A stretch of DNA of 64,000 nt, taken from positions 24,862,001-24,926,000 of the forward strand of contig CM120642.1 in NCBI GenBank assembly GCA_051362555.1, given 5' to 3'. The notes under the pieces were generated by a model, which had not been told where the DNA came from, did no database searches, and saw only the letters and a program-made list of their open reading frames with translations. Below are positions 17,964-63,948 of this stretch, in pieces (position 1 is the stretch's first letter; the number at the start of each line of letters is the position of its first letter). Source of the stretch: Lingula anatina. Lineage: Eukaryota; Animalia; Brachiopoda. Position numbers and translations under genes: made by a program.

Positions 17964-19632
17964 AAAAACATAAAATTTAAACCATTTAACTGTTGCTCGT
18001 AGCGCCATCTCACACTCTCCAATCTAATGTATGTTTCAGAAAATGCCTTTGTTTATGTTCATTTTAAATAACACAATAATTAGATCGCCGCTACGTTCGC
18101 GGTGTCACCTGTCTTTTAAAATTGAAAAAAAATCTTGCGGTCTTTTGCTGCAGGTCATTATTTTTGGTTGTTTAATGTTTTTGTAATATTTCAGCCATTT
18201 AATGAATCTTAAGTTATATCCATGATTAACTAGACGATATGATGACAGGACACAGTTAATAGTTATAGTCGAAACTGCATTTTCATAGACAGTAATTTGC
18301 AAAAAATTCGTTAACAGGTGAAAAATATACTTGAAGTTGAGAACAAAATGTACCAGTAAAATAAATGTGCATCTCGTAACCCCTTCAGAGCAGTCTAATT
18401 TTTGTTAGTATGAATAACGTACGAATATTATCCAAAATGATTGTTTTTTTAAACCTTCTTTACTGAATACGAAAACTTTCCATGCTAGCAAGGCATGAAT
18501 CGGAAAAAGATTGCATTATTACGCAAAAAGCTAGATTTATCACTTTCTGTCACAATAGGTTTAGAAACAGTAGAATACGCGACCCCCTCCTTCTCGCTAC
18601 TCGACTCTCCAGGTAGAAAAACGTTTCACAAAAAAACGTCACTGTCAAAGCATGTTTAGGTAGTTCTACACCACATGTTCGTTACGTCACTCCCTTAAAC
18701 CCCTCTCCAATTTCGATTTCAGATAGTCATTCAGTAGGCCTAACAGACAAAATTATATGTCAAGGTGTTCTGGTCAATACATGCCTAGATATAAAATTTT
18801 TGAAACTGAACAAGGTGACCGTGATCAAGTGTCATAAAGCTTACATTACAAACTTGCGCTGTTATTAGATGGCTTTTTAAAAGTTAAATTAAATTTATTC
18901 TATATTCTAATTTATTCTATATTGAATTAAAATCTTTCGTTCTACGTATTAAAGTTTGGAAATTATTTTTGTTTATTTTGTGTGTGTGTGTGGGGAGGGG
19001 GGGGGGTTGAGGGCGGTAAAAATAAAAAGACCCCACAGAATCCGCCCCTGAATATAGTCTATTCAAATGAATATCTAATAAATAGCAGTGGCTGACTAGT
19101 TGGTCACTGTTTTCCCCCAAAAAACTCCAAGGTGGGCGAGAGTCGGGATCGCATCCGAGGCCTGTCATTCCTGAAAAGTCGGACCCCCCCTTCAAATAAT
19201 CCTGGAGCCGCCCCTGAGACCTGGACATAAGCAAGCCTAATTTGCACCGAAGACTCACTCACTGTGTCTTTTTGAACAGAATGTTCCTTTTATAAATTTC
19301 TTCAAAATTCAATTCTACCTTAAGATATAACTTATAGAAAAGCATACATGTAATACAACATTAACAAGGCTAGCTTGATTTGCACCAGGAAATTGCTCAC
19401 TGTTTCTTAATTTAGACATTATGTTGAAATTTTGTTTGTTAAAAAACCAATATAAAAGAATATTAAAATTACCACAGGAAAGGAAATTAATATATAACCA
19501 AATAAACGGATTGCACAACAGGATTTTATCATGTGATTAAAGCTGTTGTTTTATCAGCACCGTCGTGAGGGTGTTTCGCAATCAACTTCTATATTGTGTT
19601 TGTTGAGATCGTCGCCGTGTGTAGAATATGAT

Positions 19633-19714
19633 CCAATCAGCTGCAGCTTATTATTCAGTCCGGCGACCTAGAAAAGCACAAAAACAACTGGGGCACAACA
19701 CAAGCCGCCATCTT
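19633..19714 (+). promoter_or_regulatory. Flotillin-1 proximal promoter motifs (CCAAT, Inr-like TCAGT, YY1-like GCCGCCATCTT)
   Basis: CCAAT at 19633, TCAGTC at ~19655 and GCCGCCATCTT at 19704-19714, in a locally CpG-rich patch just 5' of the ATG at 19746. Confidence 0.45.
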
Positions 19715-19745
19715 AACGTAAGAGAGGGGCTTTTGCGATTTAACC

Positions 19746-22700
19746 ATGGTGTTCGAAACTTGTGGGCCCAACGAGGCCATGGTTGTTTCAGGTAAGTAAT
19801 AGTTTCTCCAGGGTTATGTGTATGATCATGAATTTTTAGTAAATATATTCAAAAGTAGATAGATTGCAGAGAACTTTTGGAGAAGTGCCCTGCCCCTCCG
19901 ATTTTGCAACAGGATGGGTCTTTCGCAATAACATCTGCAATGCATTTTTTCCAACAAGTGCAATAAACAGACTGCAAATTCATATTGATCTTCATCATTT
20001 GTAATTTTTTTTTGTCAAATAAGAGCCTTTGATATCGTTTTCACGTTTAACTTAATGTATAAATCACTAGTAGATGAATTAATTATGTTAACGAGTAACG
20101 TTCTGTTGTTATTGAATTTTGATAGAGCTACCTACTCGTACTGTATACAAGTTATTTTTAAACTGTTTATTGCCTGCATGTTTGCGAATATTGTATATAA
20201 TCATAAGCATGCTCTTTTCCACCTATATTGTCTTTAAACAGACCCTTTTTGCATATCCTCCTCTGACGGAAATGGAAAATTGTGAAATTCTTTTCACTTC
20301 AAGCTCCTCAGAGAGTAGTGGGTTCAATGTCATGACATCCACAGTCCAGTAACACTTTGTTTTACATCTTGCTGATAGATTGGTTGAACAAGTGCAAAGA
20401 GAACGATAGCAAAAGCCATTGCTTGTCATCTGAGCGAAACTGGACAGTTTAACATCTGATTTCAGTATGCTGTGTTTATCTGTGGCAGTTATTAAAACTA
20501 TTGATTTTTTTTTCTGGAACAATAATGATAACATTTATTGGTATTTCATCACTAGGCTGCTGTTTGAGTAAACCGTTTATAGTGCCAGGCGGCAGGGTCT
20601 GGGTCTGGCCTGGAATTCAGCAGTTGCAAAAGTAAGGGATTCTCATTGGCCACCATATTCGGACTGTAGCAGCCACGCAGCATGAGACTTGTGTTTTGTT
20701 TAATTGTTTCATGGCTTTTTTTATTGAGCATTTCCAATATATGTTTTTGTTTTTTTTCTGCTCCCTTAGTTTGATTTTTTTCACAAATTTTAATGTGAAA
20801 AAAATTTTGGATAAGATTTTTCTAGTCATTTCCATCATAAAGAAAAAAAAAACATTTCAACCAAAAAGCTTATTTCCAAAAGAAAAACAACCATGAACAA
20901 ATTAAAAACTTGTTGGAATTGTCTCCCATTTCATTTGCATTATAGGTTGTAAGTGCCACAGTTACTGTATGTTATAACATGGCCATTGGGGTAGCATTTT
21001 AGAAGCTGTATTAAGTTTATATGGCAGGAGTCAAAGGCAGAAATAAAAATTCATGTATGCTTCATAGACCATTTTGATTTTCTGATTTGACGTATTATTG
21101 GCCTCGGTTTATTATTGATTTAAAAAGATACTCTGTCAGCTGCAGTTTTTTGCTCTAGTCTATAAGTCTATAAGACTGATAAAAAAGATTTTTTTAAAAA
21201 TGGCATCTGCAAGTTAATTTTTTAGCCTTTGTTTAATATAATAATTAAGATGGGATTATTGTAAATTTCTGCCCCTGCTCACATATACATATATATATAT
21301 TTAAATATAGCATGCATGTTGATTTTGTTCTTATTCTAAAGCATGGGCTATGTTGTATTTATGATAGAGGACGGAAATTTCTTTCATTTACAGATGAACG
21401 TATATATCTGTTTTAACCTGCCCCAGTGGTTAATGTACTTACATATATGTAACAAATGGTAGTAGAAATATTGTTTTGCTTTCAGCAAAGCCCAGTGCTG
21501 CCACTTACCAGGCAGTGTTCTGCTTTTCATGTGTTTTATTTATACTGTACATCAGGATTTTCCTTGCAACTGAATAAAATAAAATTCTGTCAAGAATCAC
21601 TTTTATTTCTTTTATAAAATCAAATTTCAATAAATTTATGTTCAAATTTTCAAAAAATAACTAAATAGATAATAATACAAAAAGATTTTGGCAAAAGAAG
21701 ATTGGTGTCTACTTATCTCATTCTCATCCGCAGCTGTCATGAAACATTTTTATTACTTTGCCCATACTAGGCACCTGAATATAAATCTGCTTTCTGAAAT
21801 CAACTCCTGATGTACAGTAATCGCCAGCAGTAGTATTATAGTACACTTGTTTAGAGTGACATGGTGAATCAGTTTGTAGCATGTTGTTGTTTTTTGTTGC
21901 ACTTGTCTAGGCTGCTGTCATGGGAAACCAAGCATAATCCCAGGTGGGAGGGTCTGGGTGTGGCCTTGTATACAACAGTTACAGAGGTAAACCTGCTTAA
22001 CCACCAATTGATATATGCCACATTCATTTTCAGTGAGAAAATTTTTTTTTCGAGAAATTCATAAAATCAAAATATCAGAAAATTATGTGCAAATTTGCCA
22101 AAAGAAAAAGAAAAAAGAAATGAAAAAGTGACAATATAAAAGATTTTGGAAAGGAAAATTGATTGTATTTTCCTGTAAGTATTTTTTAGATTTTATCTCG
22201 GGTGTATGTGTTATTAGGTCTTATATCTGCAGCATATGCACATTTATTTTTTTCTTCATTATAAAAAATTATATTTTATTACCCAGTACAGCTAGAATCA
22301 AATTTACAAGTTATTTGTTAGAATTCCCTGATTTATAAAATGCCTGTGAATAGTCTTTTCACTAAAAATGAATGTTGGCAATAATATTGGGTCTTTATAG
22401 AGTTTGTAATTAATTTACATTTGTGATGTGATGTGTTTTGTTTAGATTATGTATTATTATATTCTAATTTGTTAAATACACGCATAATGACATATTAAAT
22501 TTAAAATTAAATTTTGGATACCTATTCTGCACTGAATTTGAATTTTTTTTAAATGTCTTGTTACTAGAAAATGTATCTATTTCTTATATTGCAATGTTTT
22601 CCATACATCGATGTATATTGCATTGTCAATTTTTGCACATAGTTTTTTAATGCTCATTGAAATGAAAGTTGAATTTAATACTTATTATTTATTCTTTAAC

Positions 22701-25700
22701 ATGTCTATTTGTTTTTATTAAAAGAGATTGTGGTATATTTGCTCTGGAGATTCACTTATCAACATAATTTTGTCAATTGCTTTATTATCATCCTTTATGC
22801 CCTGTCTTAGAATTAATGTTAGTTCAGGGGAAAACCAAAATAATATTGAACTTGAAAGTGTATTCTTGTGTGGAACACTATTTCCAAAACAATGTGTTCT
22901 GTTGGCCCCCTAAATTTGTCATTAAATATGATATAAATGTGGTTGAAGTGCTAAATTTTATGTTAATTTCCTCATTTATTTCATGGTGAGTGTGAAATTT
23001 TGTTCCCACACAATCCCTTGAAATTTAGCTCATCCAGGTCGCATTTGATTTTTTATTTCCAAGTGACTATTTCAAAGAAAAGGAAAAAAAAATACAAGTG
23101 AAGTTTTCACTTTTCATTTCCATCTGCTGTTTCTTCAGAATATCTCTGAATATCATGACCTTGCACATCGAAACCCCACAAGTGTATACACAGGCAGGGG
23201 TGGCTATCTCTGTCACTGGGATAGCACAGGTAACACTGGCTTGCTCACACACTACTCTGACCCTCTAGACTGAATCAGATCTGAATGGAAAAACCGGATT
23301 GTAATCATGGAACATCTGCACAGCATAATTCCATTGAAGGAGATTTCCTCTGTTGATGGTAATAACTGGATTTGGGAGCGTTGTAAGGGCTCCCAACATG
23401 TCAAAACATGCCAGAAATGAGAGTCCTGATTCCATATAACTTATTTGAGAATCCTGCTGTTCAGATGCCAGCATGATTACAATATGTGGTGTTTTGAAAT
23501 TTAGATTGAATCAGTTTCGAGATGTCAGAGAGGACTGTGAATAGAGCCTGAGTTTTGGCCCAAGTTAAATTTGAACCCATGAACATGTGCATGATTTTTT
23601 TTCATTTTCATAAAGCATGTTTTAAGCATATGGTTTATTTACACCCCACCCCTCCCTATTTTACCTATCCACTATTTACCCTGAATGATTTCCCTGAATA
23701 TGAAAATATCAGTATTCCCTAAAATGCAAAGATCTGCTGCCAATGATTTTGACTAACCAAAATCGCATTTTTGTACTGATTCAAAATGGGAATGCTGATA
23801 TTGACGTATACTGTGAATTTATGCATGTCTCCGGGTTGGAAAGGTCAGAATTTCAGGTCATTTTAGCATTCTCAAGGAAGACAGGTAACTTTTTGGTGTT
23901 CAAGAATTGATGTTTTCTCAGGTTCAGGTTGTGTATATCCCACATTGATTGGTTATTGATTGGTTTTGATCAATTTATGATTTATAGACAAAATTATGTT
24001 CAGATGTAGAAGGTTGATAGAGACAAAATTCAAGAATGATTATTCACAACCCATCTGAGGAAACATCAAAAGACGGAATCTCAAGTCCCATTTATTTCCC
24101 CACTGTTTTAAAAAGTGAATCTTGGTTTTACCTGTAGAATATATCCAGTAAAATATTTCACTGAGGTCAGTGGGTGATCTACATTTCCCTAATTGGTTCA
24201 TTAGGTAGTAGTTAGCAAATCCGGTTCTAACATTTCTTTTTCTGCAGAATTAACCTGAACACCATGACCCTAAAGGTCACCAGTCCTCAGGTGTACACAC
24301 AGTTAGGGGTGGCAATCTCAGTCACTGGTATTGCACAGGTAAGGTTTTCTACAGGTATGACACTGTGCTATGTAACACACTAGCTGGGGCACACACTAGC
24401 ATGGTTTTCTTTTCAGCCACTAAGCTAAAAATGAATTACCCAGACCACATTTTTTGTGTTTAATCGTGACGAAATTGATGATGTTTTATTTGGTATTTTT
24501 GAAAGGTTTTGTGAACGGACTTATTTTAACGTTTGCTTGGTTGTTTTTAGCTATTGGTGAAAGTGAATCATGCTAATGCAAGCCCACACCAGTGTTGTGC
24601 ACGTGTGATACAAAGCGGTGCTTAGCACCCCGCCCTCCCCCCTTTTTTTTCTTACAAAAACTTGGTTTGCAGTTGTGTGGATTTTTGTCTACCTGTCACT
24701 ATGGTGTTATTTTTTTGTAATTCTCTGCTTCAGAATAACTCTCAACACAATGACTCTTGTAATAGAGAGTCCAAATGTGTATACCCAGCTTGGTGTTGCC
24801 ATTTCTGTAACAGGTGTAGCCCAGGTGAGAATTAGTTTTTTTTGTGAGGACATCACATGTTATTTATATGGGACCATTCAGAGTGAGAAGAGCCGAGTGC
24901 TAGCTAGGCCATGACCTAAATATGACGGACCTTCATGAAAGGAAGAACGCTTAATCCATGCCTTGTCCTTTGGTTGAATTGAGCCGAGACTTAATTACTG
25001 TGCCCCTGGAGGGATGACGCGTAAGGACGTGTGTGAGAGGTGGAGAGACCATTACGGGATTAAGTGGTCTTCTTTTCATGTAGGTCGGCCATATTTAGGT
25101 CATGGCCTAGCTAGCACTCGGCTCTTCTCATTCTGAATGGTCCCTATTGTAGACGAAACTTGATCTTGTAAAAAAGTAAAGTGAAGGGCCTTTGCAGTCA
25201 CTGCTTGGGTGGTGAGGAAAGTAAATGCATACTAACCCCCCCCCCCCACCCACCTATTCACCCACTATCAAGGGGAAGCAAATTTTCTATTCCTGATGCA
25301 TACGCTGTGACATGTTTCCAGAGTTTGTCCTTTTCTGAAGCGAACAGGATTAATATTAAAGCTGAAATTTTTCACAAAGTAAAGCTATTAAAAAATGAAA
25401 TGTTTATTTTAAAAAAATTACTAACATTTCTATTTTCGCTGTTTAAGGTAATTAACATTTGCATCAGTTAACCTGCAAACAATATCAATTATAATGGCTT
25501 CTCTGGTAACATTTTGTCTTTGAAAAACAAGTGTTGGGTAAAAAAAAGTTTGATTGTTAAAACTGGCCCAGTCTTCCCCAACCTCCCAAATTCACCTTTG
25601 TGTACTCAGATACTTTATAGACTGAATTCCGTACTAGCAATATGAAAGGTGAGTTGTATCAACATCTTAGAATTTGAAAATTGGGTGGGACAAATAATCA

Positions 25701-27142
25701 AAGAGCAGTGTATTTTTGCAATTTTTGAAGTGTTTTCCCTTTAAATTTATTTGAGTGCATTTTGGTGAAGAGTGCATTTTGGTGAAGTTTCTGGGTTCAG
25801 TTACAGTAACGTATTTATTTGAGTCTTTGACCTTCTTTAGAAGTCTTCAGCTGTAAGTTCTTCAAACTTAACTTGTAGATTAGACATTGTTGTACTTTAT
25901 TAATACCGTTCTCAGAAGTAGTATTGAGCACTGTAGTTGTCATTCGTTTGTACATAGTATTTGAGACATATTGTGTTGTTTTGTTTACTAGTAAGCCAAA
26001 TTTTTTTATATCAAAAAATATTAACAATTCTGGTTAAGGTCCAAAATGGTTGCCCTGTTTTGTTACTGACATCAGCTTAACTTAATAATATTTAAGAATA
26101 ATTTGTCTATAATTTATGTTTTGGTATAAGCCTCATTACTTCAAAACATAATTATTTAAAGTTACAGTGAGCATGATAAGCTACTAAATTACAAAACTTA
26201 TTTTCTCCCTCTTGAAATTGTGATTAATATAAAGGACCAGTGTTGTAAGCAGTAATATGTATTTTAATAAATCTTATAAATGAACAAAAATGATGAAATA
26301 AGTGAGCTATAAAGAATGTTATGGAATTCATAATTGGCATTGTGAATTTATATCAGTACTTGTAAATGACAAGATATTCCGCCTCATATCCAATCTCCTG
26401 TCTGTGTAACTCCAGGTGAAGATTCAGGGCGCCAACCGCGAGATGCTGGAGGCAGCATGTCAGCAGTTCCTGGGGAAAAGTGAGAATGAAATCCGCAGCA
26501 TTGCCCAAGAGACCTTAGAGGGTCACCAGAGAGCTATCATGGGAACCATGACAGTGGAGGTAAGCTGATATATCACCTGTTGGGGATCAATTCTGTGACC
26601 ATAATCTTGATTTAATCAATCTTGATCTTTTATTTCCTTTGCCCAGTGATAAAATTACCAGCATGATGTCTACGTGTTTACTTTTATGATGATATGGGAT
26701 TTCCTTGCTATATTCACACTATGTATTTCTTACAATTTCCCATTTTATAGTTTTTTAAGATTATGTGAATTTTAATCACAGATGTTCTGGGTGTAATTGG
26801 GATTCTGTGCTGAATTTTATTTTCAGCAAGAAAGTATGATTAGTATTGAGATTTTTTATGTTTAGAATGACCTGACTCTGAAATGTAAGAGTTATTATTG
26901 CAAGGTAGTTATTTTGCTGACTGCAAAGTCAACTTTTCAAAATGAATATTATTGTTAGAATTCTATATGTATGCAAACTTTAAAAGTTGATGGTTCCAAA
27001 ATTTCAGGAAATCTACAAAGACCGTAAGAAGTTTTCCAAAGCTGTATTTGAGGTGGCTTCGTCTGATCTTATCAATATGGGTATTAGTGTGGTGAGCTAT
27101 ACCCTGAAGGACATAAGAGATGACGAGGTAATGAAATCCCCC

Positions 27143-27193
<51 letters not shown>

Positions 27194-29950
27194 CACACAC
27201 CTGTTAAAATTATAAATATAGTATAGCCATCACCCCTGTAAAGTTAGCAAATATGTAAGAATAGATAGATCCCATTACAGAATTGTATATACACATGAAA
27301 TATTTTCAAAAAAAAAAAAAAAAAAACTTCTATAAGACATATCCAGCTGCTCATTTTGGAGCAGCCCCCTCAAGTTGTCTCATTCTAGGCTTACTTGAAA
27401 TCCCTTGGCCTGGCACGTACAGCAGAGGTGATGAGGGATGCTAGAATTGGGGAGGCTGAGGCCAAGATGGAGACTGTTATCAGAGTAAATGAAGGGCATG
27501 CTATATTGTTCTGCATGGATATGTTTCTCCTTCTGTGTCTTAGTGGTTAGGATTTTGGAGTGGTGATTATGCACTATTTGAATTTAAGGAAAAACTAGAT
27601 GGAATATTGTAATTGGGAGTCTTTGGTCAATTAAGTGGAAGTTTTGTCTGTATCTGACAGTTTGGATTACTCAAGTCATTACTGGTGAGCAAAATTACAC
27701 AACTTTGGATATTTTGGATTACTATGTTGACTAAGCTTTTCTTTAGAATACAACTTAGTTTGGTCATATATCATCCTAAAGGATTGCATATTTTGCACCA
27801 CTCTAAAATCTGACAAGCTTTGACATATTGTGAAGGATCAGTGTGTAGATATTTTTGTAGTTATTCCTTTTATTTACCCATTTATGTGGTTGGTGTTTTA
27901 GGGCTATTTGAAATCTCTGGGTATGTCAAGGACAGCCCAGGTAAAGAGGGATGCCAGAATTGGTGAGGCCGAAGCAAAGAGAGATGCAGGAATGAAGGCA
28001 AGTATGATCACTGCCAGTGTTATTGGCTGACCAAGTTAAGCTGTAAGTCAGCATCAGCTGTGGACCAAGCTGCTGAGTCAAGACTAATTCAATTCAAAGA
28101 CTAAGATTTGAATCAGTCGTAGAGATGCATGATAAAGTTGTTAACCTTTACAGTAAATGTCATTCTTAAGACCAACAGCAATTTCAAACACAAGACAATG
28201 GCATGGTTAAAACATTATGTTAACCCATTTTGTTTAATAAGCTTAGCCAGTTTAGTTAGTTTCTAGGGTGTGTTTATTGCTTGGTAGATGAAGTAAGATT
28301 TTTTATGCTTTAGCTGTTGAAAAAGTAAATTATTATAATTTATTGCATGAAGTATATGCAAGATATTAATATGTGTTGACAGTGTTGTCTTTAAAGTGTT
28401 TCTGCCTTGCTGTTTCAACTTTTCCCAACATAAAGTCAATTTTAATTCAATTTAAGTACATCTGATGAAGACATAATGCTTAAACAGTTCATGCTGTCTT
28501 TAATTTGGAATCATAACATCTTACCTGACTCAAAGATTACCTGAGCAGTCTGTTGACATTTCATCTTCTACATGGTTACAGGAAGCCATTGCCGAGGAGC
28601 AGAGAATGGCCGCCCGTTACCAAAATGACATAGAAATCGCAAAAGCCCAAAGGGACTTTGAACTGAAGAAAGCTGCCTATGACCAAGAAGTGCAGACAAA
28701 GAAGGCTCAGTCTGACTTGGCATATGAACTGCAAGTAAGTGGAGAGAGAGAGAGAAAATTGTATTGTAACAGATATTATGTAAATTGGTTCTTGCTGAAG
28801 GTTTGATATTGTATATGCAATTTGATTGCTAGGAGGAATTTGTCGTCAAAGCCAAGTTGAAGTTTTTACTGATAATCTGCATACATCTATTGACACAAAG
28901 GCCCATGGCAGTTCCCCTTTGTATCGTTGTTTTCAGCAAGTTTTGCCAAGTCTACAGTAGTTTTCACATTCTTCACTATGATTTGTAAAATATGAAAGGG
29001 GTTAAAAGGACATGTTTTGTCAGCAGTTACACAAATGTGTGCATTCTGATCAATGTATCTGTGTCCAATGTTACCAGGCCGCCAAGACCAAACAGCGCAT
29101 CAAGGAGGAACAGATGCAGATCAAGGTGGTAGAAAGGACACAGCAGATTCAGGTACAGCAGCAGGAGATTGTCCGTAAAGAGCGTGAACTAGAAGCAACC
29201 ATTCGTAAGCCTGCAGAAGCAGAGAAATACAGACTTGAGAGACTGGCTGAAGCAAACAAGTGAGTAATGGGACACATGCATGAAAATAGCCCCCCCCTCC
29301 TCCCTCCCCCATTCTCAATCAGGAGGTTAGGAGGGATATTAAAAGAATAATATTTAATTGGTGGATTAATTTGATCAGGAAAAAAGTCAGTTTTTTATTT
29401 ATTTATGTATTAAGTTAAGAAAATGAAATTAAAATGGCAAAATTATATCAAAGTGAAATTAAATACGTCATTTTTACAGGACACGGTTGAATACTTTCAT
29501 GTGACACAGTTAAATAATTTTGAATAATATCGTTACTTTTAGGAACCGGGTAATTCTGGAAGCCCAGGCCAATGCCGAAGCTGTTCAGGTAAAGATATTT
29601 CCAGTATAGCCAAGGAAGAATTTGAAACTGGTCACTTTTAACCTCATGTCAATTCATGTTGTGTAATCACTTTACCGGGTGGCTATATTTAATGCCTTCA
29701 AATTCTGCTGCAGTTCTTACCACAAAGAGAGCTATCGTATAATACTATTTATTACTGTCTTTGTGATTCAGGTGAAAGGAGAAGCTGAAGCTTATGCCAT
29801 TGAAGCCAAGGCTAAGGCAGAAGCAGAACAGATGGCTAAGAAAGCAGATGCCTGGAAGGACTACCAGGATGCAGCTAAAGTGGATATGGTGTTGGAGACA
29901 TTACCTAAGGTATTTTTGACTGTCTGCATTTGTCTGTGTCCGTGTGTGTG

Positions 29951-33086: not shown

Positions 33087-36000
33087 GATCCAATTTAGGA
33101 CATAGTTATCATAATCATGCACCTTTTCCTGACAGATAGGGTGGCATTTTTAGTGACACGACGCTATAAGAAATCAGCAACTGAATTTGTACGCAGATGA
33201 TGTGTTTAACACTGTACCTTAGGTATTATTGTTTCTTGGGAGAGTTTATCGTCCAGATTTTCATCCGTGTCAGTGCCACTGTTTCCTCTCAGCATAGCTC
33301 TGTCCGTGTCACTGTACACACCATCGGCGAAATAATTTAATACCGCAGCACGCCGAGGCTTGTCTGTCCTCAAAGACACAAACATCATTTGATAAGAATA
33401 TTATAAGGAGATGAGGCGTAACCTTTTCAAAGCAATTTTCAACTTACAGGCCCGTAGCCAGGGGGGTTCGGGGGGTTCGAAAGAACCGCCCCTTTTGCTG
33501 GAAAAAGGTCCACTCTGGGTAAAATTTGATCTACAGTAGGTACATGAAGTTTTTATGGGAAAAGGTCCACTTTTTCAGAAAAAGAACCCCCCTTTTGAAA
33601 TTGCTGGCTACCGGCCTGACTTAGATATCTCGTCATTAAAATTGAGCATCTAGGCATGTGTCAACAAGTACCAGAAGGCGATTCCGAGAAGTTGGATTGG
33701 TTGAAAGTATTTATCACGATTATTTCTACAATTAAAATGGTAACAAGTAAGAGATAATATTTTAGCCTAAATTGTATCCATAATGACACTATTACATGGG
33801 CAGTGACTTATTGAAATATTATGTGGAACAGTTACTCTGAAAATGACAAGCAGCGGAGAATATTGTTTGCAACATTGCAACGTTATCATTTCAAACACAT
33901 TCAGCAATCTGTACATTACGTTTACTTGTTATCATAAGATCCATGAACCGTCATAGCATTATGGAAACTGGCATGTCCTTTCTTTAACAGCGCGGGCACT
34001 GGCTTAAAAGCGGCCTTCTCTTCATCAGTTAGGATGGACTGAAACACAGTAAATGATGTTACCGTTTCCCCACGAAACACAATCGTCGTGAAAATTGCTC
34101 ACATGTGTGAAATTAAAAGAAGCAAGTAACATTTGTTTTAGGGTAGAGCCAACCAAACAATAGTTAAAATACATGTACTGTCACACTTAGCGTTTAGCAG
34201 TAGGCCTAATAGTCTGGTGGGAAGGAGGGGTTCACGTGCAACCCCGTGAAAAACAGTGGATACCTATATTTTCTTAACCCTTGATGTCTAAATTTTTGAT
34301 TTCTAGATGTTCCCAGAGTGAAAAAATGTCCCATGGGGTTTTAATTTAATGATATGTAACACCCTGTCGCTCAAATAACCGCATTTGAAATAATGGGGGT
34401 AGGGGAAGAAAATTATCTATAGTTTGCAATTTAAATAAGATATAAGAATGGTTTATATATCATTATGTAGGTAAAGGGTTGCTCTAAAAATACAAGTAAT
34501 AAAAGTTATGTAATACTGAACCATGTCTAAGTAAAATGGTGTCAAAGGTCAAATGAGGTCAAATTTGAGAAATTTTCAGAAAAATAAAGCAATAAAGTTT
34601 ATCTGTATAGAGAATGTGAGCCAACAACATACTTTTAAGGGTATATTTTATAAATCCCATCTATATTACAAATGTTTAATGGTCATTTGTGACTTAGTTT
34701 TACAGTTTGTGAGAATTATGATGGATATGATTAACGTATGGGAGTATCAGTTAAATTTCAGATCAGTGGGGGTAGGGGAAGAAAATCACTCATAACTTAA
34801 AATTTAAGTAAGATATAACAATGATTTATACATCATTGCAAAGCTAAAGGCTAGTTCTAAAAACATAAGTAATAAAAATTATGTAATGCTAAACCATAAT
34901 GGAGTAAATGGGGTCAAAGGTCAAATGAGGTCAAATTTGAGAAATTTTCAGGAAAATAAGCCAATATAGTTTACTTATTTAGAGGATTAGAGCCCACAGT
35001 ACATTTTAGAGTATTTTTTGTAAGTTCCATCAATTAAGCAAATGCAAAATGATCTATTGGTATTTAATTTTACAGTTTGTGGAAATTTTAATGGATTAGG
35101 ATTGGATTGATTAACATATGGGTACTGACACTATCATTTCAATTTCAGAACAATGGGAGTAGGGGAAGAAAATCACCCATAACCTAAAATTTAAGTTATA
35201 TACAACAATGATTTGTATATCATTGCATATCTAAAGCATTGTTCTAAACATTAAAGTAATAAAAGTTATGTAATACTGAACCATCTCAAAGTAAAAGGGG
35301 GTCAAATAAGGTCAAATGAGGTCAAATTTGAGAAATTTTTAGAAAAATAAAGCAATAAAGTTTATCTGTATAGAGAATGTGAGCTACCAATATACTTTCT
35401 AGTGTATGTTTGGTAAATCTATCTATATGACAATGCTTAATGGTTATTTGCATCTTAATTTAGTTTGTGAGAATTATGATGGATATGATTAGCGTATGGG
35501 AATATAAGTTAAACTTCAGATCAGTGGGGGTATGGAAAGAAAATCAATCATAACTTAAAATTTAAGTAAGATATAACAATGATTCAAATATCATTGCATA
35601 GCTAAGGAGTTCTTCTAAACACATAAGTAATTAAAATTATGTAATACTTAACAATTATGGAGTAAATGGGGTCAAAGTTCAAATAAGGTCAAATTTGAGG
35701 AATTTTCAGTAAAATAAAGCAATAAAGTTTATTTATTTAGAGGGTTAGAGTCCACAGTATGATTTTGGAGTATGTAGTGCAAATCTCATCTTTATAGCAA
35801 ATGTTTTATAATCTTTTGAGACTTAATTGTACATTTTCTGAGATTTATCAATATGGTGGGATGTGTAGTTCAATTGCCAAAAATGGGGGTAGGGGAAAGA
35901 AATTCATTAATAGTATAGGATTTAATTAAGATATGACATTGATTATACATCACTGTGTTGATAAAAGAGAGCTCTAAACATCTAAGCAATAAAAGTTGTG

Positions 36001-39000
36001 CAACATTGAATCATGGCTGAGTTAAAAGAGATCAAATGTTAAATAAGGTCAAAATTGAGACATCATCAGGAAAGTTGAATAGAGGTCAAATTTGAGTCAT
36101 TTTCTGGAAAAAAAACAATAAAGCTAATTATTTTACATAGCACTTGAACTTAGATTATGTTTCTTTAGGGTAAGTTGTCCGTTTCAATTATTTCATGAGA
36201 ATTTATTTTAAAGTTTGTTAATTTTAAAATGCATTTCTTACAGCAGAGGGGTTCAGCATAATTGCCAAAAATTGGGGGTAGGGAAAAATCTGTTCATAGT
36301 AGGGGATTTTAAGTAAGATGTGGCTATGATTTATGTATCATTCTGAAGCTGAAGGGTTGTTCAAAATACATCAGAAATAAATGTTATTTAAAATTGAGAC
36401 ATGGTGAGGCTTAATGGGGTGCAAGATCAAATTAGGTAAATTTGTAGGCATTTCTAGGAATGTAAACCAATACAATTTATATTATTTATACTTGACTTGA
36501 ACCTAAAATATGTTTTTTAGACACATGTCCATCCCTATTACAAGGACTTGATGGAATATTTGGATTTTTTTACAATAAGTGAGTACTGCAGATGGGATCA
36601 GTTCAATTGCATAAAAAATGGAGACAGGGAAAGGACACCCATCATAGTAGGGAATTTGATTAAGATTTACCTTAGATATATCACTGTGCAGCCAAAATGT
36701 TGCTCATAACATATAAATAACACATTTTATGTAAACGTTAATCATATGTCTTCATAAAATGGGATCAAATGTTAAATGAGGTCAACTATGAGGCATTTGT
36801 AAGAAAACAAATAAAAAATATAGCAGTTAAATTCTACAGAGAGGAATATGATTTGTAGACTAAGATATATCTGGGATAGCATTAGCTATTTTTTTTTTTT
36901 TCGCTTAGCCAAATCACCACATTTTTGTCAATTTGTTACCAAAATAGATATAATTTGGCTAAAACATGTCAAATCAAGCCCTTTTTCTTTAGCCAATTTA
37001 AGTCAGTTTTAGCAGTTGGCTAAAATGGCGAGTGCTAGCACTACCCCAGTATATATATATATTGGTTAAGTTCATATGTTTTACAATGATTTGATGGGGG
37101 TATGTGAGTTTATTTTACAGTAGGTGAGATATAAAACCTACTATACAAGCACTGCAGATGGGTTTAATTCAATTGTCGGGGAAAAAAACGGGGGGAGAGG
37201 AGAAAAATCCATATCATTTGATATTTATTCTTAAAACAAAATATACAGTATACTCCTACATTACTTAAATGCTTAGAGGGACCATTCAGCAACACAATGA
37301 TATATAAACTATAGTTATATCTTACTTAATTCCCTTACTATTAATGATTTCCTTCTCCTAGCTGCCCCCATTTGTGGGCAATTGAACTAAGATCCCCCTA
37401 CAGTACATATACTAATAAGTTGTATCATTCATAAATATCAGAAACTCTAAAATAAAGTATTTAAACACCATGAAATTTTTGTACCAAAAATTTAATTTAT
37501 CAAAGATATCCAAAAATCCTAATTTGAACTCATGTTCTCTGAATAAAGAAACTTGACTGCTTCATATATGAGTCCTCATTTGACAGTTTTCCCCTTTTTA
37601 CACAGACATCATTCAATTTTACATAAAATTTGCAATTTAAATGTTTAGAACAACCCTTCAGGTATATTATGATATACAAATCACAGTTATACCTTACTTA
37701 GAATACCTCCTATGAGTGATGTCCTTTCCCTGTCCCCACTTTATGGCAATTTAACTGAACACTTCTAAAGTACTGGTATCAGACATAGATCTAAATGCTG
37801 TAAAATGAATTCCCGAAACCCTGTTAAATAACTAAGATTTAAACTGTATTTACCAATCATACTCTAAGAAAACATTTTCTACGTTCAATATTTCTGCTTA
37901 AAGAAAAATTCTATTGGGTGATTTCTTTTTTTTTTTTTTTTTTGAAAATGACTCAGTTTTGACCTTATTGGACCGTTGACCACCTTTAACTCAGCCACGT
38001 TTCAATGTTACTTAACTTTTATTATTTATTGGATGTTTAGAGCTCTCCTTCAGCAACATAATGATATATAAATCAATGTCATATCTTAATCAAATCCTAT
38101 ACTAAGAATGATTTCCTTCCCCTACCCCCATTTTTGGCAATTGAACTTAACACACCCCCCAACCTTTATTGTATCATTCATTTTGATAAATCTTCCAAAA
38201 TGTAAAATTAAGTCTCAATAGACCATAAAACATTTGCTATATAAATAGGATTTGTACAATTTACTCCAAATATATACTGTGGGCTCTTATCCTCTAAAGG
38301 AACAAACTTTATTGGCATGTTTTCCTGAAATTTTCTTAAATTTGACCTCGTTTGACCTTTGACCCCATTTTACTCCATAATGGTGTAGTATTACATAATT
38401 TTATTACTTATGTGTTTAGAGGAACTTCTTAGCTATGCAATGATATTTGAATCATTGTTATATTTTACTTAAATTTCAAGTTATGATTGATTTTCTTCCC
38501 CTACCCCCACTGATCTGAAATTTAACGGATACTCCCATATGCTAATCATATCCATCATAATTATCACAAACTGTAAAACTAAGTCACAAATGACCATTAA
38601 ACATTTGTAATATAGATGGGATTTATAAAATATACCCTTAAAAGTATGTTGTTGGCTCACATTCTCTATACAGATAAACTTTATTGCTTTATTTTTCTGA
38701 AAATTTCTCAAATTTGACCTCATTTGACCTTTGACACCATTTTACTTAGACATGGTTCAGTATTACATAACTTTTATTACTTGTATTTTTAGAGCAACCC
38801 TTTACCTACATAATGATATATAAACCATTCTTATATCTTATTTAAATTGCAAACTATAGATAATTTTCTTCCCCTACCCCCATTATTTCAAATGCGGTTA
38901 TTTGAGCGACAGGGTGTTACATATCATTAAATTAAAACCCCATGGGACATTTTTTCACTCTGGGAACATCTAGAAATCAAAAATTTAGACATCAAGGGTT

Positions 39001-46731: not shown

Positions 46732-47023
46732 TACGGAAGCCGACTGGTGCCATATGTTGAAAAAAAAAATTATCTCGAAATTTCGAGATAGCATTTTTTT
46801 TGTTCAAATTTCAAAATACTATCTCGAAATTTCGAGATAAATTTTTTTGCTCAAATATCAAAATGCTATCTCGAAATTTCGAGATAATTTTTTTTTTGTT
46901 CAAATTTCAAAATGCTATCTCGAAATTTCGAGATAAAAATTTTTTTTGTTCAAATTTCAAAATAGTATCTCGAAATTTCGAGATAATTTTTTTTTCTACA
47001 TATGGCACCAGTCGGCTTCCGTA
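46732..47023. mobile_element. 292-bp MITE with IS3EU-like ends, nested in the HINE
   Basis: 26-bp TIR TACGGAAGCCGACTGGTGCCATATGT and a 6-bp CATTTT duplication. The interior has five ~49-bp units, each with the perfect palindrome TATCTCGAAATTTCGAGATA. Confidence 0.8.
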
Positions 47024-63756: not shown

Positions 63757-63948
63757 GGATCGATCTATCTCCAAGGGAATTCTCTCTAAATTGCAATCAA
63801 CTTAAGCGGCTTAGATGTATGTCACGCCTTCTAGAGCTGCTAGGTGGTAATACATGATCGTTTAGCAGCTTCAGTTGGCGTGTCAGACATCTAAGCCGCT
63901 TTAGCTGAAAGCAATTTAGAGAGAAGCTGCTTGGAGATGGATTGGTCC
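63757..63948. repeat. ~190-bp imperfect palindrome, probably the core of a MITE, in the ROCO intron
   Basis: AAGCGGCTTAGATGT / ACATCTAAGCCGCTT and TTCTCTCTAAATTGC / GCAATTTAGAGAGAA arms. Confidence 0.7.

Follow-up and report, generated by a model that had tools for sequence, protein, structure and literature searches.

A whole-intron stem between flotillin-1 exons 6a and 6b of Lingula anatina as a candidate RNA structure in mutually exclusive splicing

The alternative exons 17.1 and 17.2 of Drosophila Dscam1 were reportedly described by Yue et al. in 2013. For exon 17 of this gene, the available part of one source gives structure plus distant branch points, and the same part presents exons 4a/4b of vertebrate OGDH as mutually exclusive exons (MXEs) of the steric-hindrance type (PMC7969005). 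Among 629 human clusters, 57 were assigned to steric-hindrance MXEs by a short donor-branch distance and 484 were left unexplained, according to the accessible text of PMC5740500. Docking-site/selector pairings are reported for Dscam1 exons 4, 6 and 9 and for 14-3-3, Mhc and MRP1 in the available portions of PMC6071210 and PMC6027157, and yeast zipper stems (RPS17B and others), which leave 42-85 nt free, aid splicing according to the consulted part of PMC12350175. As the standard MXE test considers only the linear donor-branch distance, an intron of 345-420 nt that hides both signals by folding would escape it.

The window analysed here, a stretch of 64,000 nt of Lingula anatina DNA, carries flotillin-1, a full-length orthologue of the proteins in PDB entries 9BQ2 and 9L3G (426 aa, E 3e-178); compared with these SPFH family members, the gene here has alternative exons 2, 3 and 6. 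Three sets of tandem homologous exons with splice sites, equal in length and phase as in mutually exclusive clusters, were found (2a/2b, 3a/3b/3c and 6a/6b), and annotated isoforms and RNA-seq joints demonstrate that these clusters are real, as the original prediction had proposed in reading them as alternative variants; all 16 motifs that it quoted were recovered at their positions, one of them at 23455 instead of ~23456. On the + strand, the coding part of exon 1, from the ATG (19746..19791), is followed by the minor exon 2a (20556..20631; identical to annotated isoforms X4-X6) and the major exon 2b (21911..21986), both of 76 nt, by exons 3a (23139..23229; minor), 3b (24248..24338) and 3c (24734..24824), each of 91 nt, by exons 4 (26416..26559) and 5 (27008..27127), constant here, by exons 6a (27389..27484; weak donor AGA/GTAAAT) and 6b (27902..27997; major; GC-AG donor), both of 96 nt, and by the constant exon 7 (28582..28734), with exons 8-12 downstream to 30850.

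Use in mRNA was seen for 2a, 2b, 3a, 3b, 3c and 6b in RNA-seq or annotated isoforms. Per run, 2-15 reads covered exon 2a at 20575, 25-126 spanned joint 1-2b and 66-108 spanned joint 6b-7; joints 2b-3b, 3b-4, 2b-3c and 3c-4 were also present, with a 3b/3c ratio that differed by run (1 read for 3b-4 vs 63 for 3c-4 in X12; 76 vs 42 in X17). Exon 6a was absent from the six annotated isoforms and had low RNA depth (at most 1-4% of exon-6 depth), with no 6a joint among the joints listed. All eight located changes in exon 6a were synonymous; this exon appears to be under purifying selection, conserved as coding sequence but rare. None of the 15 joints listed linked adjacent variants, 6a itself being rare. 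Including both 6a and 6b preserves the reading frame (a stop-free 458 aa), as had been predicted; no other joining of adjacent variants escaped a stop, as 2a+2b and all four exon-3 multi-inclusions tested led to premature ones. The literature searched yielded no description of these flotillin-1 exon clusters, though supplements of MXE surveys might list flotillins of other species.

Folding was scored as the z of the whole-intron minimum free energy (MFE) against dinucleotide shuffles. Comparison with shuffled sequence and with constitutive introns had been proposed as a check on the original prediction, and folding beyond chance was seen for three of the four introns: 6a-6b (z -3.4, 0/100 shuffles, and -3.6, 0/40; window range to -4.5), 3a-3b (z -5.3, 0/12) and 2a-2b (z -2.3, 0/12). 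Intron 3b-3c fell short as a whole (z -1.1, 12/100), its core alone reaching -2.5 (3/200) as a region picked once the fold was known. Of the 11 other FLOT1 introns, ten lay between -1.3 and +1.9; in the eleventh, intron 3c-4, a MITE-like repeat brought z to -10.3, and the part downstream of this repeat had -0.3. The inter-variant introns were more structured than the others (one-sided rank test, p 0.002; 4 vs 10, MITE-bearing intron excluded), and contained five uninterrupted helices of -18 kcal/mol or below (2, 2, 0 and 1 per intron; ~0.4 expected from shuffles); in the other 11 introns, only the MITE gave such a helix. A stable stem in the intervening intron, as in Dscam exon 17, was thus predicted for 6a-6b and 3a-3b, and more weakly for 2a-2b and 3b-3c. 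Sliding 300-nt folds across 19300-28099 (86 windows) flagged only parts of introns 1-2a, 2a-2b and 3a-3b and the MITE; the folds of 6a-6b and 3b-3c went unflagged, being longer than 300 nt or divided between neighbouring segments. G-U pairs, said to be frequent and to favour pairing at the RNA level, did outnumber A-C (48 vs 20) in arms chosen from the sense fold, but composition alone predicts 55-72% G-U, and this asymmetry is weak and largely compositional.

An end-to-end fold, claimed for every inter-variant intron, was predicted for 6a-6b (417 nt) alone. The complementarity of its arms is directly visible, and the fold and branch points are predictions. The basal helix, which the original prediction had missed (27485/27877), begins exactly at the donor G: its 5' arm is 6a donor +1..+12 (27485..27496, +; P 0.94-0.99 in 4/4 haplotypes), and its 3' arm (27866..27877, +) covers the motif-predicted 6b branch point TTTAC (A27876, -26), with a second motif-predicted candidate at -18 outside the helix. 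The inner stem is kept in all haplotypes, with a 5' arm at 27534..27573 (+; 27534-39, 27551-65 and 27568-73; P 0.79-0.99) and a 3' arm at 27785..27827 (+), no X10 substitution falling in 27776-27830; helices at 27500-27516 occurred in the window haplotype only. The three other haplotypes gave z -2.75, -3.8 and -2.9 (0/40 shuffles each), both basal-helix changes among haplotypes preserve pairing (G-U to A-U, G-C to G-U), and the antisense strand had z -1.65 (5/100) vs -3.4 for the sense strand. In a post-hoc test, the duplex between donor and branch zone ranked 1-2 of 15 introns in 25/25 window settings. Opening the 6a donor was predicted to cost 4.9-8.3 kcal/mol vs 0.5-4.9 for other donors, and the predicted donor-to-branch distance through confident helices was 2 nt in all six settings. 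Once both splice signals were forced open, the linker was 17-83 nt, which overlaps ordinary introns and would be borderline for steric exclusion.

Comparison with other animals drew on 10 metagenome loci, of which two were used (L010 and L006), four had no flotillin match, and L001, L003, L008 and L009 came from other animals with no exon-6 pair in view; an organism-B run covered exon 6b and nothing more. The two bivalve-like loci had the same exon-6 pair, separated by an intron of 343/345 nt with no recognisable sequence match to Lingula, and this intron was again predicted to form one long stem (z -2.9 and -5.2; 0/100 shuffles each), so that the stem was present in 2/2 species with DNA. Here the basal helix lies on the 6b pyrimidine tract with CTAAC enclosed and the 6a donor is cheap to open (1.1-1.4 kcal/mol), its geometry being thus unlike that of Lingula; the linker left after the signals are freed was 40-109 nt, overlapping ordinary introns. 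Four other L006 introns, two long ones left out, had z from -1.8 to +0.4, and the bivalve exon-3 spacer was unstructured (z -0.25; 6/15 shuffles). Compensatory change, proposed as a check, amounted to one G-C/A-U pair between the bivalve-like loci, with modest substitution placement tests (5/150 and 24/150), and to no doubly compensated pair within Lingula. In the annelid Dimorphilus, the gene model carries the two exon-6 copies, again with RTAEV before RTAQV; exon-6 peptide identities are too flat to prove orthology, which the E/Q order alone supports. A scan of GTDB for the exon-6 pattern gave 30 matches, all titled bacterial genomes, and one of viral contigs gave none. The flotillin-1 isoform system is widespread and includes the 2a/2b Gly/Cys switch (Gly in 2a at the position of Cys35 in 2b), which falls where human flotillin-1 has its Cys34 palmitoylation site. 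Tentatively, and with less than an even chance of being right, the exon-6 pair could go back to an ancestor shared by brachiopods, molluscs and annelids, its exclusion enforced for >500 million years by a whole-intron RNA clamp that kept its shape while the sequence was replaced completely, and with the Lingula clamp holding the upstream donor right against the downstream branch point.

The explanation we prefer, with confidence evenly poised, is that the long exon-6 stem would keep 6a silent by default and prevent 6a-6b joining, with clusters 2 and 3 cleared mainly by nonsense-mediated decay (NMD) of double-inclusion products. At the base of the stem, the 6a donor region would pair with the branch-point/pyrimidine region of 6b, hiding both signals. 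In the folded state, U1 would be barred from the weak 6a donor, and 6b would be defined through a free pyrimidine tract, a strong GC donor and possibly the -18 branch point, so that 6b dominates. In some cell type, a factor might allow the basal helix to be opened by U1; what is left of the stem would then hold the 6a donor and the 6b branch point ~45-60 nt apart, hindering U2 loading, so that 6a-6b joining is impeded and 6a is spliced to exon 7 instead. The stem likely blocks joining at this intron, as the end-to-end fold is predicted to hide both signals and to recur in a bivalve-like animal with unrelated sequence; against this, comparable yeast stems promote splicing in the available account (PMC12350175).

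A rather unlikely account, though the strongest of the competing ones, is that the stems are selected but set the variant ratio alone, by donor silencing, as protein landing pads or by zipper-like compaction, with exclusion arising from splicing factors, weak 6a signals and NMD. Occlusion of the 6a donor would account for the rarity of 6a without a steric step, the residual linkers match the 42-85 nt zipper range given in the accessible part of PMC12350175, and the shifts of the 3b/3c ratio between runs point to trans factors. Ratio setting does not account, however, for a stem that two phyla share in the one cluster with in-frame double inclusion and that is absent from the bivalve exon-3 spacer.

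Collapse of all four inter-variant introns below ~50 nt, with steric hindrance excluding in every cluster, was the general form of the original prediction and is improbable. The four introns were the most structured group and, in the first setting, took the top four places among 15 introns for the duplex between donor and branch zone, but 2a-2b ranged from rank 3 to 14 across settings. This intron (20632..21910, +) has separate stem modules (20699-20906; 20961-21453, with 21036/21273 inside; 21543-21819), weakly paired ends and a folded donor-to-branch distance predicted at 76-262 nt. Intron 3a-3b (23230..24247, +) has four modules (23255-23530, 23546-23858, 23907-24069 and 24099-24174) and a candidate donor clamp (23235-23245/24214-24225) adjoining TCTAAC, which favours collapse with the intron alone (P 0.84-0.92; distance 11-13 nt) and is lost in exon context (P 0.0; 98-179 nt); its stable part begins at +26, and the start ~9 nt after the donor that had been proposed has P 0.05. 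In 3b-3c (24339..24733, +), a core stem (24355-24620) leaves a 3' tail of ~110 nt outside, the donor clamp lies 3 kcal/mol above the MFE (P 0.02), the outer pair quoted earlier has P 0.34 vs 0.6 for a competing register, and the predicted distance is 78-172 nt, so that 2a-2b and 3b-3c both exceed 75 nt. Helices as strong as those quoted, and unmentioned earlier, occur at 20980/21432, 23705/23802 and 23907/24069. Ordinary introns too fall below 50 nt in some settings, and by effective-distance measures 6a-6b is the only inter-variant intron to stand apart from them. The unstructured bivalve exon-3 spacer also argues against general collapse, as do the premature stops that result anyway when variants of cluster 2 or 3 are joined. 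Introns 2a-2b, 3a-3b and 3b-3c do have real stems, but only partial ones, which may adjust the choice of variant; a role in enforcing exclusion is not supported.

Neutral stems, left by decayed foldback/MITE insertions or by chance pairing in U/G-rich introns, are less probable still. A MITE-like inverted repeat with 88-nt arms (92%; 24870..25144, no strand assigned), a control outside the mechanism, lies in intron 3c-4 and pairs far more strongly; moreover, 4/45 background tiles of the window reach z -2.3 (1/45 reach -3.4), and Lingula substitutions do not avoid the 6a-6b stem: of 24 X10 substitutions in the intron, 11 fell at positions with P at least 0.8 (7.7 expected) and six of those 11 break a pair, the refolded energy being no better than random placement (63/150). 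However, the first base of the helix is the donor G itself, and the orthologous bivalve intron has the same kind of stem in unrelated sequence. RNA reads piled up on both strands, with foreign loose ends, at the MITE alone. The original prediction had counted a match to dispersed MITEs against itself; none of the stem arms occurs a second time within the 64-kb window, and at 80% likeness three genome runs of organism A (filtered contig sets) matched 6a-6b with allelic contigs only. Dispersed copies, as of a MITE-derived foldback, were found neither for 6a-6b (window and contigs) nor for the other stems (window and RNA reads).

Competing docking-site/selector pairing of the Dscam type between different introns, common in insect clusters according to the available part of PMC6071210, is hardly credible here even though a 14-bp helix joins exon 3a to the exon-4 acceptor (23187/26408), as inter-region helices of -16 kcal/mol or below numbered 12 around exons 2-4 vs 5-14 in five shuffles and none around exons 5-7, the flanks of the variants have no repeated intron sequence in common, and the inter-region helix search, of low power in a single genome, revealed no docking site complementary to several selectors.

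Intron 6a-6b is short, sits in the gene's single NMD-proof cluster and has a counterpart of unrelated sequence in a second phylum, which makes it a non-insect case compact enough for minigene tests and suited to comparison between species. Set beside the systems described, as far as the available parts of the sources go, it resembles docking/selector systems in having intronic base pairing around duplicated exons, but no shared docking site was found and all pairing stays inside the individual inter-variant introns. In classic steric-hindrance MXEs, exclusion is attributed to a donor-branch distance below ~50 nt; motif-predicted branch points here lie 381-1227 nt from the donors, outside that class, and at the 391 nt of 6a-6b proximity would come only through folding. 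With a basal helix that begins at +1 and takes in the predicted branch point, the stem falls outside the definition of a yeast zipper stem, which the remainder after opening may fit. The closest likeness is to Dscam1 exon 17.1/17.2, a two-exon cluster like 6a/6b for which RNA structure and steric hindrance have been proposed jointly; relative to that cluster as available sources describe it, the predicted Lingula branch point stands at a normal -26, and the whole 417-nt intron is predicted to fold with its donor paired to the branch point.

Structure above chance is predicted in three of the four introns separating the alternative flotillin-1 exons (2a/2b, 3a/3b/3c and 6a/6b) and is marginal in 3b-3c, as judged from whole-intron folding energies against dinucleotide shuffles (z), background tiles and strong-helix counts. 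Introns 3a-3b and 2a-2b reached z values of -5.3 and -2.3 (0/12 shuffles as stable in each), 6a-6b -3.4 (0/100) and 3b-3c -1.1 (12/100; core alone -2.5), compared with -1.3 to +1.9 for ten other FLOT1 introns. Intron 3c-4 had a z of -10.3 owing to a MITE-like repeat, and of -0.3 beyond it. Among background tiles of the window, -3.4 was reached by 1/45 and -2.3 by 4/45, while five strong helices were present across the four introns versus about 0.4 expected. The stem motifs of the original prediction were all in place (16/16); its appeal to frequent G-U pairs proved weak after composition, although the antisense strand of 6a-6b folded much worse.

The same prediction held that stems collapse each of these introns and block splicing of adjacent variants; in the predicted folds, collapse was borne out for 6a-6b and not for 2a-2b, 3a-3b or 3b-3c. 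In 6a-6b (27485..27901), donor positions +1 to +12 (27485-96) paired with 27866-77 (P 0.99 alone, 0.96 with flanking exons), an arm including the best predicted branch-point motif (A27876). Four modules filled 3a-3b, whose clamp from +6..+16 to just upstream of TCTAAC formed in the isolated intron and fell to P 0 once exons were included; a comparable clamp in 3b-3c lay 3 kcal/mol above the optimum, and the ends of 2a-2b were weakly paired. By path length via confident helices, 6a-6b alone stood out. In a post-hoc ranking of donor/branch-zone duplexes in 15 introns, 6a-6b and 3a-3b came first and second in 25/25 settings, 3b-3c third to fifth and 2a-2b third to fourteenth.

As far as tested, the stems are not dispersed repeats: their arms had no second copy inside the 64-kb window, and at 80% likeness the 6a-6b intron matched allelic contigs only among the genome-run contigs compared. 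The MITE-like element in intron 3c-4 (24870-25144, 88-nt arms) has copies transcribed elsewhere, and both-strand RNA reads piled up solely on it. At ~25230, far from the exon-4 acceptor, a perfect TACTAAC precedes a run of C. Strong inverted-repeat elements at 46732-47023 and 63757-63948, one with palindromic units at ~49-nt spacing, are probably transposon-derived, and degenerate tandem repeats of several hundred bases were seen by eye downstream of the gene (~34300-36800).

Window exon 4 matched Lingula anatina flotillin-1 at 98%, and the window peptides were exact in all six annotated isoforms (X1-X6), which possessed 2a or 2b, one of 3a, 3b or 3c, and always 6b. The path 1-2b-3c-4-5-6b-7...12 encoded 426 aa orthologous to flotillin-1 of PDB 9L3G/9BQ2. 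Cys35 in exon 2b (21911-21986) aligned with Cys34 of flotillin-1 in 9L3G, a palmitoylation site according to the accessible text of PMC7177705; as exon 2a (20556-20631) has Gly instead, exon choice would toggle the Cys34-equivalent lipid anchor.

In four RNA runs, taken from three studies and sampled at 6-25% each, joints 1-2b, 2b-3b, 2b-3c, 3b-4, 3c-4, 4-5 and 6b-7 were present, the last supporting a GC-AG donor of exon 6b at 27998 (AAG/GCAAGT). Depth was low for 2a and 3a, and the 3b:3c ratio varied among runs. Adjacent variants were connected by 0/15 of the joints listed, seven further joints, and two more near a repeat, lying outside that list, so variant exclusion is not proven. Exon 6a (27389-27484), missing from all six annotated isoforms, accounted for at most 1-4% of exon-6 depth, measured in the RNA bin containing it. 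Judging from its substitutions, it is a real coding exon despite this low depth, because 8/8 located in DNA runs X10 and X3 were synonymous and third-position; of five more, unlocated, two may fall in 6a. It is probably a cell-type-restricted variant. On translation, 6a+6b double inclusion gave 458 aa with no stop, whereas 2a+2b and the four exon-3 multi-inclusions tested met early stops; the exon-3-skipping path 1-2a-2b-4 was likewise open (421 aa).

Scanning metagenome contigs with a sequence pattern yielded 10 loci, including two versions (L006 and L010) of a bivalve-like flotillin-1 with exon 4 85% identical to Mya. Both possessed the exon-6 pair, with a spacer (345/343 nt) predicted to form a single long stem (z -5.2/-2.9), in which +46..+59 paired at the base with the 6b pyrimidine tract, enclosing CTAAC. 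No recognisable sequence match linked this spacer to the Lingula 6a-6b intron. Compensatory change came to one G-C/A-U pair in 96 consensus pairs between L006 and L010, and to none in the 6a-6b stem among the Lingula haplotypes compared; L006/L010 substitution placement tests gave 5/150 and 24/150. Among 13 non-Lingula groups compared, the annotated isoforms of Branchiostoma, Mercenaria, Ruditapes, Mya, Liolophura and Lineus included exon-3 variants, and those of Mercenaria and Ruditapes had exon-6 variants as well. A Dimorphilus gene model carried two fused exon-6 copies, and their RTAEV-then-RTAQV order, shared with Lingula and L010, suggests one ancestral exon-6 duplication, from one diagnostic residue plus order. 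Flotillin-1 exon duplications were lineage-variable (proteins P0001, P0002, P0112-P0155): exon 4 was doubled in the Dimorphilus model and in P0002, exon 5 in Branchiostoma, Lineus had six exon-3 variants, and crinoids and amphioxus had alternative first exons. Locus L009 (2299-5940) possessed four tandem copies of a fused exon 1-3 region before a single downstream part, apparently alternative 5' cassettes in another animal.

For exon 6, the folded intron would hide the 6a donor, leaving 6a silent by default, and the remaining stem would tether that donor near the 6b branch point, so that 6a and 6b are not joined. Opening the 6a donor is predicted to cost 4.9-8.3 kcal/mol versus 0.5-4.9 for other donors tested, which fits default silencing, and 6b retains a free pyrimidine tract, a strong GC donor and, at -18, a second candidate branch point. 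Once both signals were forced open, a 6a-6b linker of 17-83 nt remained (53-58 in X10 and X4, narrow footprint), near published limits (a vertebrate steric threshold of ~50 nt in the accessible parts of PMC7969005 and PMC5740500; 42 nt for a yeast model in that of PMC12350175), yet not set apart from ordinary introns. Occlusion plus tethering is therefore adopted for exon 6, at about an even chance, with its rivals kept. That the stems affect the variant ratio only is a lesser possibility. Collapse of all inter-variant introns is unlikely, as only 6a-6b closes end to end and the L006 exon-3 spacer was overall unstructured (z -0.25, with an end coordinate 1-2 nt short), like three ordinary L006 introns.

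The basal helix of 6a-6b was kept in 4/4 haplotypes (P 0.94-0.99), both substitutions within it keeping the pairing, and the inner helices (stem 27534..27573/27785..27827) persisted at P 0.79-0.99; helices at 27500-27516 occurred in the window haplotype only. X10 substitutions fell on confident pairs in 11/24 cases versus 7.7 expected, 6 breaking the pair, and their refolded energy equalled random placement (63/150), the reverse-direction test (0/150) being biased by the stabler window allele. A neutral origin of the stems is improbable, and docking/selector pairing is hardly to be expected.

No publication on these flotillin clusters of mutually exclusive or alternative exons was found in the literature covered, largely outside subscription journals. 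Dscam exon 17 is a known case of structure-assisted exclusion, according to the accessible text of the citing paper PMC7969005, and the flotillin-1 exon-6 stem may, by analogy, be a variation on it.
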